Below, piece after piece: positions 40,144 to 42,736 of a DNA stretch of 64,000 nucleotides. The position numbers and the translations under genes were made by a program. Source of the DNA: Lentihominibacter sp. (GTDB lineage: Bacteria > Bacillota > Clostridia > Peptostreptococcales > Anaerovoracaceae); the NCBI GenBank assembly GCA_045638485.1, contig JAZUBM010000006.1:79-64078 (forward strand), given 5' to 3'. The notes under the pieces are model-generated. The model worked only from the letters and a program-made list of their open reading frames with translations, made no database searches and was not told the origin of the DNA. The first letter of the stretch is position 1. The number at the start of each line of letters is the position of its first letter.

Positions 40144-41267
40144 AACTTGAATTGATAGCAACAGCTACATTTGGACTTGAAGCAGTAGTAAAAAGAGAAA
40201 TAGAAGCGCTAGGCTACAAAATCATCAAAACAGAAGACGGTAAGGTCACCTATATGGGAGACGAAAGAGCAATCGTTAAATCGAACTTATGGCTGAGAAG
40301 TGCTGATAGAGTATTGCTGAAAATGGCTGAATTCAAAGCTGTAGAGTTTGAAGAGCTGTTTCAGCAGACAAAGGCGCTCCCGTGGGAAGAACTGATACCT
40401 GTAGACGGAAAATTCACAGTAACAGGTACTTCGGTAAAATCTAAGCTCCATAGTGTTCCTGCTTGCCAGAAGATAGTAAAAAAAGCAATTGTCGAGAAAC
40501 TGAAGGAATTCTATGGACTGGAAGTTTTCGAAGAAACCGGGGCTGAATATACAGTAAAAGCAACCATCCTTAAGGATAGAGTTACCTTAACAGTTGATAC
40601 TACAGGTGCAGGCCTCCATAAGAGAGGATATAGGGTTGCAGATGTGGCAGCTCCTATTAAGGAGACATTGGCAGCAGCGATGGTTCAACTGAGTTTTTGG
40701 AACAAAGACAGAATACTGTTGGATCCATGTTGCGGATCCGGAACAATTCCTATTGAAGCAGCCATGATTGCAAGAAACATTGCTCCCGGTCTCAATAGAA
40801 AATTTGCTTGTCAGGATTGGGAACTGATAGACGAGAAAATATGGAAAGAAGAAAAGAAGGCTGCTTTCGAAGCCATTGACTATGATACCGAACTTAAAAT
40901 TTACGGCTTCGATATCAACAGAAAAGCTGTAGATGCTGCAAGGGAAAATGCTGAAGAAGCAGGAGTAGATGACTGCATAGTGATTAAAAAGGCGGATGCT
41001 TCCAAACTGAGATCCATAGGCGATAACGGTATAGTATTAACCAACCCACCATATGGTGAACGTATCGGAGAGGAAGAAGAAATTCTTAAAATATACGAAG
41101 GCTTTGGTAAGTTCTTCAGAGAAAACCCTGACTGGTCGCTGTTCATGATAACAACTGACAAGGAGGCCGAAGAGAAAATCATGGGAAGAGAGGCCAACAG
41201 AAGAAGAAAGTTATATAACGGTAGATTAGAAACTTGTTATTATCAGTTTCATGGGGAAAGAAAATGA
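40140..41267 (+). CDS. THUMP-domain class I SAM RNA methyltransferase (RlmL/YpsC-like)
   Basis: ATATFGLEA, LHKRGYR, APIKETLAAA, DPCCGSGTI and TNPPYGER. Confidence 0.9.
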   Translation: MKLELIATATFGLEAVVKREIEALGYKIIKTEDGKVTYMGDERAIVKSNLWLRSADRVLLKMAEFKAVEFEELFQQTKALPWEELIPVDGKFTVTGTSVKSKLHSVPACQKIVKKAIVEKLKEFYGLEVFEETGAEYTVKATILKDRVTLTVDTTGAGLHKRGYRVADVAAPIKETLAAAMVQLSFWNKDRILLDPCCGSGTIPIEAAMIARNIAPGLNRKFACQDWELIDEKIWKEEKKAAFEAIDYDTELKIYGFDINRKAVDAARENAEEAGVDDCIVIKKADASKLRSIGDNGIVLTNPPYGERIGEEEEILKIYEGFGKFFRENPDWSLFMITTDKEAEEKIMGREANRRRKLYNGRLETCYYQFHGERK

Positions 41268-42736
41268 ACATAACAGTAAACAGAAATGAAAAGATACCTC
41301 TGTACATGCAGATATCAGGACAGATAAAAAGCATGATATTCAGCGGTACTCTCGTTAATGGATGCAGGCTTCCGTCGGAGAGATGTCTTGCGGAAAGTCT
41401 GTCTGTACATAGAAATACTGTCATAAGAGCTTATACCGAACTGAAAGACGAAGGCCTGATTACTTCTTATCAAGGCCAATGCTACTTGGTTAACTATGGA
41501 ACCATGTTTTATGGCATGATCAAGAAGCCCGTAAATTGGGAATCTCTCATTAAAGATGAGTATATCAGTTTTGACAGTGATTTCGATGAATTGTTCAGGA
41601 AAACTTATGAAAGCGATATTATATCTTTTGGTGGCGGATTAGCTGCAAGAGAATTATATCCTAGAGAAGAAGTTGTCTCGGTCTTTGATCGTATGCTTGA
41701 AATGCGAAAAGATAAGGCTTACTTTTACACGCCTTACCAGGGTGATTACGAGCTGAGAAAGGAGATAGTTTCTTTTCTCATGTCTAAAGGAATTATGACC
41801 GGGCCGACTAACATACAGATGTTTACAGAAAATAATCAGGCACTTGACTTTATCATGACTCTCATGCTTATGCCGGGAGATAAAGTTATAGTGCCTGAAA
41901 TACTTTCTCCGGATGTTTACAGAGCTATTCAATTTGCCGGAGGACAACTTATTACAGTTCCGATGGATAGTGATGGCATGATGTGCGACAACATAGAAGC
42001 CTTAATTCAAAAGGAAAAACCAAAGTTTATATACGTTGATTCAAGTTTTAACAATCCTACCGGAGTTGTGCTTTCTCTTGAAAGAAGGAGAAAACTGTTG
42101 GAGATGTCATATAAGTATCGCATCCCTATAATCGAAGAAGACGAAGGCTCTGAACTTTATTACGATGTAAATAGAATACCTGCTATAAAATCAATGGATA
42201 CAGGAAATAATGTTATATATATGTACTCCTTCGCCCTGACTATGATGCCCGGGGCAGGCATGTCATTTGTGATAGCTGATCATAATGTGATTAAGCGAAT
42301 GAGTGAACTGATTTCAATGAAGGTGGTATCCCTGGATTGGGTGCCTCAGATGTTGCTTTTGGAATATATGAGAGAAGGCACTTTATATGATAGGCTTGAA
42401 GGGTTCAGAAACATTTGCAGAGAGAAACGAGACTTGATGTATCGATGGTTTGAAAAAGAAATAGAACCAACAGGTGCAAAGTGCGAAAAGCCGGTAGGCG
42501 GAGTGTATCTTTGGATCAAGTTGCCTGAAGGAATGGATGGAAAGGCTCTTCTTAGAGAAATACAAAAGGAAGGGGTTACCTTTATTCCGGGGTATGTTTT
42601 TTATCCGCAAAAGCATAAGGGGAATAACCGAATAAGGCTTAATTTTTCTTATCCTACAAAGGAAGAAATTGTGGTTGGTATGGAAAAATTGGGAAGAATA
42701 ATTAGATGCACACAACTGAAAATTCAGAAAAAATAA
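41264..42736 (+). CDS. MocR/GabR-type GntR regulator with a degenerate PLP site
   Basis: wHTH PLYMQI..LPSER.LA..L.VHRNTV..AY.EL; aminotransferase-like domain FNNPTG, IIEED and IRLNFS; SFSK is replaced by SFAL. Confidence 0.88.
   Translation: MNITVNRNEKIPLYMQISGQIKSMIFSGTLVNGCRLPSERCLAESLSVHRNTVIRAYTELKDEGLITSYQGQCYLVNYGTMFYGMIKKPVNWESLIKDEYISFDSDFDELFRKTYESDIISFGGGLAARELYPREEVVSVFDRMLEMRKDKAYFYTPYQGDYELRKEIVSFLMSKGIMTGPTNIQMFTENNQALDFIMTLMLMPGDKVIVPEILSPDVYRAIQFAGGQLITVPMDSDGMMCDNIEALIQKEKPKFIYVDSSFNNPTGVVLSLERRRKLLEMSYKYRIPIIEEDEGSELYYDVNRIPAIKSMDTGNNVIYMYSFALTMMPGAGMSFVIADHNVIKRMSELISMKVVSLDWVPQMLLLEYMREGTLYDRLEGFRNICREKRDLMYRWFEKEIEPTGAKCEKPVGGVYLWIKLPEGMDGKALLREIQKEGVTFIPGYVFYPQKHKGNNRIRLNFSYPTKEEIVVGMEKLGRIIRCTQLKIQKK

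Follow-up and report, generated by a model that had tools for sequence, protein, structure and literature searches.

A Lys-less MocR/GabR-type protein and a conserved direct repeat at the arginine deiminase promoter of Anaerovoracaceae

Introduction

The arginine deiminase (ADI) pathway is a major ATP and ammonia route in asaccharolytic gut and rumen anaerobes of the Anaerovoracaceae (Clostridiales Family XIII). In Firmicutes, the usual regulators of ADI operons are ArgR/AhrC and the Crp/Fnr-type ArcR, which control arcABC expression. No description of ADI regulation in Anaerovoracaceae was found in the literature searched. The window analysed here, a 64-kb stretch of Lentihominibacter DNA, contains an arc operon downstream of a gene encoding a MocR/GabR-type protein with a leucine in place of the Schiff-base lysine. 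Does such a protein control the arc genes, and what could it sense? The literature defines MocR regulators as PLP-dependent, and a family-wide classification reported the Schiff-base lysine to be conserved in all MocR clusters (PMC6677901), whereas we describe a large clade under selection that does without it. Neither a Lys-less or PLP-independent MocR protein nor a link between MocR regulators and the ADI pathway was found in the literature searched; Bramucci 2011, Milano 2015 and Tramonti 2018 lie outside it and may mention Lys-less sequences in passing. The reading that we favour, and hold to be reasonably likely, is that this protein belongs to a Lys-less and probably PLP-free branch within the MocR/GabR family and controls the Anaerovoracaceae OTC-ADI-CK operon, best read as an activator.

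Results

The regulator gene is coupled to an rlmL-like gene and precedes an arc operon

40140-41267, + strand: THUMP/RlmL-type methyltransferase gene, 5' neighbour of the regulator (sequence, Pfam, synteny)
41264-42736, + strand: Lys-less MocR/GabR-type regulator gene, 490 aa from ATG plus stop (Pfam domain matches, alignments to solved structures, AF2 model)
42893-46136, + strand: predicted target operon OTC-ADI-CK (arc) (Pfam, synteny, metatranscriptome coverage)
42893-43888, + strand: ornithine carbamoyltransferase, OTC (Pfam)
43929-45146, + strand: arginine deiminase, ADI (Pfam)
45180-46136, + strand: carbamate kinase, CK (Pfam)
46156-46193, + strand: intrinsic-terminator-like hairpin at the end of the arc operon, 12-bp stem plus T run (sequence scan)

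The preliminary description of this DNA reported a full-length regulator ORF followed by argF-arcA-arcC, and both statements held: the ORF spans 490 codons plus stop, and OTC, ADI and CK follow on the same strand. It also described the regulator as heading the arc cluster. The gene does lie upstream of arc, but the wording is imprecise because the start codon of the regulator and the stop codon of the rlmL-like gene overlap (ATGA at 41264-41267) and a spacer of 156 nt, carrying a separate promoter-like element, lies ahead of OTC; the regulator is thus outside the arc transcription unit and coupled to its 5' neighbour. Given this overlap, the rlmL-like gene is the probable source of transcription for the regulator. 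Metatranscriptome contigs from 4 gut runs covered the arc operon and gave zero coverage of the regulator gene. These contigs start inside OTC, making them uninformative for the transcription start site, and because they come from relatives at 90-95% identity, the zero coverage of the faster-evolving regulator is weak evidence.

The regulator has the complete MocR/GabR architecture

41300-41479, + strand: GntR-type winged helix-turn-helix (wHTH), aa 13-72 (PF00392)
41501-41575, + strand: flexible interdomain linker, aa 80-104 (AF2 pLDDT <50 for residues 80-104)
41576-42706, + strand: fold-type-I aminotransferase-like effector/dimerisation domain, aa 105-481 (structure-sequence matches, TM-score 0.90 to LysN)

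The protein is a full-length MocR/GabR-type regulator made of a GntR wHTH and a fold-type-I AAT-like domain. The wHTH, previously described as intact, matched PF00392 with an E-value of 1.8e-12 (47 bits; cut-off 27), and its recognition helix, S-V-HRNTV-x-RAY, has H49, R50, T52, A56 and Y57 invariant among orthologues. An HTH_Crp_2 match inside this domain was sub-threshold (21 bits; cut-off 27). Pfam searches of the regulator found no cNMP-binding domain of the Crp/Fnr-type ArcR kind and no Arg_repressor domain (ArgR/AhrC), either DNA-binding or C-terminal hexamerisation.

The second domain matched Aminotran_1_2 over aa 149-474 (PF00155, 2.8e-26, 93 bits). HMMER comparison with solved structures showed that the effector domain is closest in sequence to the class I aminotransferases of the LysN / kynurenine aminotransferase II type (2egy, 1x0m, 1wst; E ~1e-56, 28-31% identity, TM-score 0.9); their alpha-carboxylate Arg is retained in the regulator, but they are enzymes without a DNA-binding domain. 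Lacking the catalytic Lys and most of the PLP contacts, the regulator is excluded as a transaminase. The AF2 model (pLDDT 81.7) had GabR 4n0b and PdxR 7zn5 as top full-length structural matches, GabR being the best of all, with a sequence match at E 5e-29.

The PLP pocket has lost the lysine and most cofactor contacts

41828-41839, + strand: E189-N190-N191-Q192 in place of the PLP-phosphate loop G-S-Q-Q (alignment)
42134-42148, + strand: E291-E292-D293-E294-G295 in place of E-D-D-P-Y / E-D-D-Y-D (alignment)
42236-42238, + strand: Leu325 codon, Schiff-base Lys position (GabR K312, LysN K239), Leu in 81/81 genomic orthologues
42257-42259, + strand: Gly332 codon, phosphate-binding Arg position, GabR R319 (alignment)
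42635-42637, + strand: Arg458 codon, retained alpha-carboxylate-binding Arg (AAT R386 equivalent, IRLNFS), invariant in 81 orthologues

The substitutions announced in the preliminary description were all recovered when the protein was aligned residue by residue to solved structures with HMMER. Codons 42227-42238 read S322-F323-A324-L325, the SFAL reported there. Alignment of T. thermophilus LysN (viylgsfskvlspglrvaf) with the query (viymysfaltmmpgagmsf) places Leu325 on the Schiff-base Lys, as does the alignment of B. subtilis GabR (nviymgtfsksllpglrisy) with the query (nviymysfaltmmpgagmsf). From GabR to the query, the changes are K312 to L325, R319 to G332, D279 to E292 (conservative) and Y281 to E294. 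The phosphate-binding Arg is therefore replaced by Gly332, a position that is variable across the 81 orthologues (G 44, S 27, R 7, T 2, C 1). In the EEDEG motif (aa 291-295), which stands in for EDDPY/EDDYD (EDDYY in the preliminary description), Glu takes the place of the pyridine-N Asp, and there is no Tyr to contact O3' or to stack on the ring (LysN Y205 corresponds to G295). The phosphate-loop motif GSQQG reads ENNQA, with E189 present in 75/81 orthologues; E or D at this column is a mark of nearly the whole Lys-less clade. The PLP-stacking aromatic is replaced by Ser-Pro.

Of the PLP contacts, the equivalents Ser322 (AAT S255) and Asn/Asp264 (N194) are kept, and an acidic residue remains at Glu/Asp292 (D222). 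The IRLNFS Arg, R458, is intact, as noted earlier. Positions equivalent to the pocket hold a cluster of invariant residues (N191, Q192, D217, R220, E291, D293, S296, Y319, Y321, S322, L325, R458, N460). A compensating PLP-binding Lys was considered and rejected: across all Lys columns of the 81 orthologues, none is conserved without exchange to Arg. This includes K388, the sole near-invariant Lys of the whole protein (79 K / 2 R), an equivalent of which is also found in LysN. The loss of ~6 of ~10 cofactor contacts indicates that the regulator is probably PLP-independent, and this sequence evidence argues against PLP binding or external-aldimine sensing.

Leucine replaces the lysine in orthologues under purifying selection

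The 81 genomic orthologues come from Anaerovoracaceae and have 46-92% identity. When the query was aligned with its 120 closest database matches, the Lys column was Leu in 119 of the 121 sequences and Met in the other 2. The dN/dS ratio was 0.03-0.10 for the regulator and 0.03-0.09 for the AAT-like domain alone, indicating that the protein is under strong purifying selection. A pseudogene or decaying regulator was rejected on these values, on the full-length ORF and on the Leu present in 81/81 orthologues. Lys-less proteins form one clade, comprising ~37 of 138 representative clusters. The preliminary description proposed a previously unrecognised regulator class; this is too strong because the clade lies inside the MocR family and shares its architecture and operator type.

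Linkage to arc persists where the rlmL neighbourhood is broken

The order MocR, OTC, ADI, CK was found in nearly all of 80 genome loci, and in almost every one that has enough downstream DNA, so that orthologues proved to be linked to arc as the preliminary description had anticipated. Adjacency to rlmL is kept in many loci and lost in ~12, and arc adjacency persists in those ~12; an association of the regulator with rlmL instead of arc was rejected on this basis. In two loci (L062, L080) the regulator is present with neither the repeat described below nor arc genes within 6-8.5 kb downstream. As much of the sampled synteny falls within one bacterial family, it partly reflects vertical inheritance.

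A direct repeat occupies a fixed position in the arc promoter

42771-42804, + strand: predicted operator, direct repeat CTGGTAC-N17-CTGGTAC-TTT (box 1 42771-42777, A-tract 42781-42785, box 2 42795-42801)
42820-42830, + strand: conserved -10-like element TATAGTATCAT, at constant spacing from box 2

The new element at this locus is a direct repeat at window positions 42771-42804 that is fixed relative to the arc promoter. It is unique in the 64-kb window, where the chance expectation is 0. Across the loci, CTGGYAC-N17-CTGGYACTTT occurs in exactly one copy per locus, always on the + strand and with an invariant 17-nt spacer. The logo of 78 distinct sequences gave the consensus aaCTGGyACA-nn-AAAAAA-n7-rCTGGyACTTT, and besides the -10 no further conserved element was visible in these arc promoters. 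The boxes are 24 bp apart start to start and the operator sits at ~ -66 to -36 of the arc promoter. No -35 hexamer was found in this promoter, either as part of a -35/-10 pair in a consensus scan or in the logo of the 78 distinct promoters; the -35 position is taken by box 2 and its TTT.

The possibility that the repeat is a feature of the regulator gene's 3' end was rejected: in four loci (L013, L050, L058, L063) an insertion of 1.8-5 kb separates the regulator from OTC, and the operator remains at the OTC promoter. In a single case on a GC-rich contig (L049), it travels with the regulator into a non-arc operon. A sigma-54 promoter (CTGGCAC-N5-TTGG) was also rejected since the -12 GC is not conserved and TGGTAC is a common variant; the presence of another, identical box 24 bp upstream and of a -10 of sigma-70 type at a fixed distance further disfavours it. 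An unbiased metagenome-wide pattern scan listed matches that are mostly chance, among which four were individually informative (L102, L111, L167, L185), showing the same box and spacing at the predicted 5' ends of distant canonical MocR genes, which the repeat either overlaps or immediately precedes. Direct repeats are the typical binding sites of MocR regulators, and TauR has CTGGACYTAA as its box (PMC5320631). From this comparative genomics, we infer that the repeat is a MocR-type operator bound by the regulator. The arc promoter had been put forward earlier as the regulator's target; a conserved MocR-type operator is indeed found there, and binding of the protein to it is a prediction from the same genome comparisons.

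Discussion

Proposed mechanism and alternatives

In the favoured reading, the rlmL-like transcription unit upstream would supply the regulator constitutively, and the regulator would not be autoregulated, because only one operator is found per locus. In a head-to-tail dimer, each wHTH would sit on one of the boxes; the dimer would span the A-tract at ~ -66 to -36 and recruit RNA polymerase to the -35-less promoter. This position, combined with recruitment to a promoter without a -35, would make the protein a class-II-like activator, comparable to GabR at gabT. An amino-acid effector may be bound non-covalently in the remodelled pocket via the retained alpha-carboxylate Arg458. Conserved acidic residues occupy pocket-equivalent positions (E189, D217, D293) and two basic residues that contact PLP are missing; because the pocket charge shifts and arginine is the pathway substrate, our guess is that arginine would be the preferred candidate effector.

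The operator position fits activation and is compatible with repression. The same regulator, acting on the same operator and target, could be a repressor that occludes the -35 region until the effector releases it, as for PtsJ, EnuR and BioL. The -35 position is adjacent to box 2 or overlapped by it, and MocR repressors are known (PMC12704756, PMC8739950), yet we consider this possible but doubtful: a good -10 without a -35 in 78 distinct promoters is typical of activator-dependent promoters, the whole operator lies upstream of the -10 and of the transcription start, and activators make up the majority of characterised MocRs that use two direct boxes (GabR, TauR, PdxR). A different question is whether the repeat is bound by another factor, the MocR gene being a mere syntenic neighbour of arc. 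Most of the synteny is confined to one family and the two loci mentioned above have the regulator without the repeat. We nevertheless hold this to be very unlikely, as repeat and regulator co-occur in L049 in a different operon context and GC background, the same box and spacing lie at the 5' ends of distant MocR genes, deeper Lys-less relatives carry direct repeats with a 23-24-bp period beside their own genes, the box resembles that of TauR, and the lack of the -12 GC and the common T variant speak against a sigma-54 promoter.

Two further alternatives concern the effector domain. Vitamin B6 might still be used, with PLP, PMP or a pre-formed PLP-amino-acid adduct held non-covalently, so that sensing would stay cofactor-dependent. 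Aminotransferase mutants lacking the Lys (Lys-to-Ala) can hold PLP non-covalently, the equivalents of Ser322, Asn/Asp264 and Glu/Asp292 are present and 7/81 orthologues have an Arg at position 332. Against this, the protein has lost the phosphate Arg, the two candidate Tyr contacts and the aromatic that stacks on PLP, the G-S phosphate loop has become E-N, with a carboxylate at the would-be phosphate site, and the loss state is fixed across the ~37 representative clusters of the clade; retention of B6 is in our view improbable. We attach a similarly low probability to the domain being a ligand-free dimerisation scaffold, the protein then acting as a constitutive promoter factor while an ArgR or Crp/Fnr-type ArcR encoded elsewhere would provide arginine control. 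The regulator is apparently not autoregulated and expressed from a housekeeping transcription unit, but the invariant residues at pocket positions exceed the needs of a scaffold, the alpha-carboxylate Arg is invariant and the arc promoters display no additional conserved element. A rough, approximate ArgR query, which is a weak test, matched no ArgR-like ORF in the window.

Comparison with known regulators

GabR of B. subtilis (4n0b, 4mgr) offers the closest parallel, sharing the wHTH, the flexible linker and the fold-type-I AAT-like domain, as well as direct-repeat operators upstream of the activated target promoter; bendable DNA between the boxes is important for GabR binding. The two differ in sensing, as GabR requires PLP on K312 and detects GABA as an external aldimine, whereas the regulator described here has L at this position. 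The gabR gene runs divergently to its target and is autoregulated, whereas this gene is co-directional, overlaps the rlmL-like gene and is accompanied by one operator only; the target pathways are GABA catabolism and, by prediction, arginine deiminase, respectively. TauR (Rhodobacter capsulatus) and PdxR (Bacillus clausii) are likewise MocR activators with direct-repeat boxes. The TauR box CTGGACYTAA is similar to CTGGYACTTT, and the structural matches of the regulator include cryo-EM structures of PdxR on DNA. Both bind PLP through the canonical Lys, however, and their regulons serve taurine use and vitamin B6 synthesis. ArgR/AhrC and ArcR have the physiological role predicted here, control of arcABC, but belong to unrelated protein families, and the operator differs from the ARG box and from the TGTGA-N6-TCACA site.

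If the favoured reading is true, the missing ADI-pathway regulator of Anaerovoracaceae has been identified. One Lys-less member now has a precisely placed predicted operator and a clear predicted target operon, so that whether the aminotransferase fold senses ligands without a cofactor becomes a question testable at the bench. The operator consensus is directly usable for regulon mapping in complete genomes. Across the Lys-less clade, comparison of wHTH recognition-helix residues with box sequence gave no clean correlation pattern.

A broader proposal, which we advance only tentatively, is that the clade is an old monophyletic MocR branch that abandoned its cofactor and whose members would be PLP-free sensors of nitrogen-rich catabolic substrates (guanidino, ureido, amide, peptide). 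The Anaerovoracaceae member would then be an arginine-responsive ADI activator in the ArgR/ArcR role, with arginine held in the vacated PLP space between the alpha-carboxylate Arg and the newly fixed acidic residues. In the rest of the clade, the neighbours of the Lys-less genes are amidohydrolase, arginase-family and peptidase operons.

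Architecture and PLP pocket of the regulator

The ORF upstream of the arc genes, which encode ornithine carbamoyltransferase (OTC), arginine deiminase (ADI) and carbamate kinase, specifies a protein of MocR/GabR architecture.

41264-42736, + strand: regulator ORF, 490 aa
aa 13-72 of the regulator: GntR-type winged helix-turn-helix (domain match)
aa 149-474 of the regulator: class I/II aminotransferase domain (domain match)

The nearest solved structures were archaeal and Thermus alpha-aminoadipate/kynurenine-type aminotransferases (E ~1e-56); GabR was matched by sequence at 5e-29. 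An AlphaFold2 model with 26 orthologues as input (mean pLDDT 81.7) contained a disordered linker at aa 80-104. GabR and PdxR ranked best among its full-length structural matches, and its effector domain aligned with LysN at a TM-score of 0.90.

The preliminary description had proposed that the Schiff-base Lys is replaced by Leu and the phosphate-binding Arg by Gly. The alignment with GabR that it recommended confirmed both changes residue by residue, placing Leu325 (codon 42236-42238) opposite GabR K312 and Gly332 opposite R319. Likewise, Glu292 and Glu294 were found opposite GabR D279 and Y281, Gly295 opposite LysN Y205, E-N-N-Q where the PLP phosphate loop G-S-Q-Q is expected, and Ser-Pro at the site of the ring-stacking aromatic residue. 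Ser322, Asn264 (S255 and N194 in aspartate-aminotransferase-type numbering) and Arg458, the alpha-carboxylate Arg, were kept. Pocket-equivalent positions hold a cluster of invariant residues (N191, Q192, D217, R220, E291, D293, S296, Y319, Y321, S322, L325, R458 and N460). Judged from these substitutions, PLP is quite probably missing from the regulator.

The Lys-less state is conserved

In an alignment of the query with the 120 nearest relatives from the database (50-92% identity), the position of K312 was Leu in 119 sequences and Met in 2. A genome scan for orthologues, taking one genome per species, yielded 80 loci, nearly all from Anaerovoracaceae (Clostridiales Family XIII) and including Anaerovorax, Emergencia, Ihubacter, Zhenpiania, Senimuribacter, Lentihominibacter and Sinanaerobacter as well as many gut and rumen MAGs. 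Leu was present in 81/81 sequences (80 loci plus the window). Pairwise dN/dS was 0.03-0.10 for the whole gene and the aminotransferase-like domain alone alike (25 pairs with unsaturated dS). Together, the invariant Leu and these ratios rule out a decaying gene: the Lys-less regulator is a conserved state under purifying selection. A compensating Schiff-base Lys, the objection raised earlier, found no candidate, since every conserved Lys anywhere in the protein exchanges with Arg in the orthologue alignment (n=81).

Linkage to the arc genes and a paired repeat at the arc promoter

Linkage of orthologues to arc genes, the other point in need of checking, held: the order regulator, OTC, ADI, carbamate kinase was found on a single strand in almost every locus with sufficient downstream DNA. 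The whole neighbourhood (mreB, an rlmL-like gene, regulator, arc genes, a CYTH-domain gene and trigger factor) is syntenic across the family, and vertical inheritance accordingly accounts for some of this linkage. In about 12 loci, arc adjacency was kept though rlmL adjacency was broken.

The regulator-OTC spacer contains a paired repeat, which had gone unnoticed in the preliminary description and is new in this analysis.

42771-42804: predicted operator, CTGGTAC-N17-CTGGTAC-TTT, 34 bp, regulator-OTC spacer

The paired pattern occurs once in the 64-kb window, where none is expected by chance. In a pattern search of the 80 loci it was found once per locus, always on the arc-gene strand and always with a 17-nt spacer. 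The logo of 78 distinct sequences read aaCTGGyACA-nn-AAAAAA-n7-rCTGGyACTTT, with CTGG, A6 and C7 essentially invariant and an A-tract separating the two boxes. A -10-like element (TATAGTAT / TATnaT) is conserved at a fixed distance after the repeat, which places box 2 at ~-42 to -36 and box 1 at ~-66 to -60. Neither a promoter scan nor the logo revealed a -35 hexamer at the arc promoter. The repeat might alternatively be read as a sigma-54 promoter; this was rejected because the -12 GC is not conserved and TGGTAC variants are common.

Where genes separate the regulator from OTC, the repeat remains at the OTC promoter. Inserts of 1.8-5 kb were found at four loci (L013, L050, L058 and L063); that of L050 (11628-12995) encodes a membrane protein of 455 aa that carries a Gate (nucleoside-recognition) domain, and the operator lies downstream of this gene, at the OTC promoter. 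At two other loci, L062 and L080, the regulator (10001-11500) follows the rlmL-like gene, and neither a CTGGYAC repeat nor arc genes were found over 6-8.5 kb downstream; the regulator is instead followed by a convergent gene for an AI-2E-family transporter. The arc cluster of L055 is locally rearranged: a truncated OTC remnant (11655-12005, 116 aa) separates the operator from ADI, with a full OTC upstream of the regulator.

The repeat as a probable site of the regulator itself

A GC-rich contig labelled Ellagibacter (Actinomycetota), L049, encodes a Lys-less orthologue 46% identical to the regulator. Here (L049:9932-16693) the same repeat, as CTGGCAC-N17-CTGGCACTTT, follows the orthologue and precedes a non-arc operon, whose genes specify an aminotransferase, an uncharacterised protein of 349 aa, an NCS1 permease and an M20 peptidase. 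Either horizontal transfer accompanied by a regulon change or mis-binning of the contig could account for this arrangement.

Metagenome contigs were also scanned for the pattern without bias, and the matches listed were mostly due to chance. Among the others were about a dozen further regulator/arc loci and four hits at distant canonical MocR genes (L102, L111, L167 and L185), each just upstream of the predicted 5' end or overlapping it, with an added inverted box in three of the four.

L111:6190-6280, L167:9060-9150, L185:380-480: three-box element CTGGCAC-n6-GTGCCAG-N17-GTGCCAG, high-GC metagenome contigs

Right after each three-box element, which has the 17-nt spacing of the arc operator, begins a canonical MocR gene that shares only 24-25% identity with the query. 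L167 carries two tandem copies of this gene. Sites of MocR regulators typically comprise two to four boxes, in many cases direct repeats at a constant spacing, and the TauR site is reported to consist of direct repeats of CTGGACYTAA (PMC5320631). Taken with these sites, the regulator very probably binds the predicted operator.

Transcription of the locus

The ATG of the regulator and the stop codon of the THUMP/RlmL-type methyltransferase gene upstream overlap. The pattern search found one repeat per locus and no second operator at the arc locus, which makes autoregulation unlikely. MocR genes are usually oriented divergently from their targets and autoregulated, unlike this gene.

46156-46183: strong terminator-like hairpin after carbamate kinase

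Contigs from four gut metatranscriptomes span 42.9-46.1 kb and not the regulator gene. Because they derive from relatives at 90-95% identity, they point weakly to a separate, strongly expressed arc transcript.

Beyond the terminator, a second OTC paralogue (46395-47390) has its own promoter-like sites (46257-46298). It shares 87% protein and 80% DNA identity with the OTC at 42893-43888, and the pair flanks arcA-arcC; one may serve catabolism and the other anabolism. This second OTC is also present in relatives L004 and L025 and absent from most other loci. A CYTH-domain protein gene (47511-48128), whose place after the arc cluster is conserved in many relatives, and the trigger factor gene (48883-50202) follow.

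Proposed mechanism and comparison with known MocR regulators

We propose that a head-to-tail dimer of the regulator would occupy the two operator boxes and activate the arc promoter that lacks a -35, responding to an amino-acid effector bound non-covalently in the former PLP pocket. The regulator probably acts by activation rather than repression. Arginine is a tentative choice of effector, somewhat short of an even chance; it is suggested by the retained Arg458, by the shifted pocket charge (Lys and Arg lost, a conserved Glu189 gained alongside D217 and D293) and by its role as substrate of the ADI pathway. The preliminary description had proposed a PLP-independent MocR regulator of arc: the computed architecture, loss of cofactor contacts, conservation under purifying selection, arc linkage, and existence and geometry of the operator agree with this, and its interpretation is borne out in part and made more specific. 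The predicted 34-bp operator is defined and ready for testing.

GabR, TauR and PdxR share the architecture of the regulator and the type and position of its predicted operator, whereas the cofactor-defining features of the family are missing from it; a family-wide classification called Asp279 and Lys312 conserved across all MocR clusters (PMC6677901). A large comparative regulon study has no arc regulon in its list (PMC5320631). Full-text searches found no paper on MocR regulation of ADI genes or on a PLP-independent MocR; Lys-less sequences may already have been mentioned in passing elsewhere.

A Lys-less clade within the MocR family

In a neighbour-joining tree of 138 full-length representatives, drawn up after a profile search of 1.84 billion representative proteins, one clade holds ~37 clusters without the Lys, with L, M, I, F, Y, Q, A, S, T, D or V in its place; nearly all members have Glu/Asp at the position of the Gly in the canonical GSQQG motif. 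One member of this Lys-less MocR clade is the predicted ADI-operon regulator with its defined 34-bp operator. About ten isolated, independent losses among otherwise canonical MocRs outside the clade indicate that Lys loss recurs in the family. In these representatives (P0260, P0262, P0261, P0266, P0218, P0229, P0178, P0142, P0256 and P0227) Lys is replaced by E, H, T, Y, R or S, and GSQQG and the phosphate Arg are kept.

Other catabolic operons adjoin deeper members of the Lys-less clade.

L210:653-6062: operon headed by P0151, a deep Lys-less relative, with arginase-family protein, creatininase, NCS1 permease and Asp/Glu racemase
L210:560-620: TGGGTA direct repeats, 24-bp period, upstream of the P0151 regulator gene
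L207: P0136, a Lys-less relative, adjoining two M20 peptidase genes and transporter genes
L207:6540-6610: ATATTTTCGGAAG, three direct copies, 23-bp period, downstream of P0136
L082, L209: Lys-less relatives beside amidohydrolase, MFS transporter and S9 peptidase

Several of these deeper loci have direct repeats of their own beside the regulator gene, recurring every 23-24 bp. The L210 operon resembles a catabolic regulon of guanidino or creatinine type.
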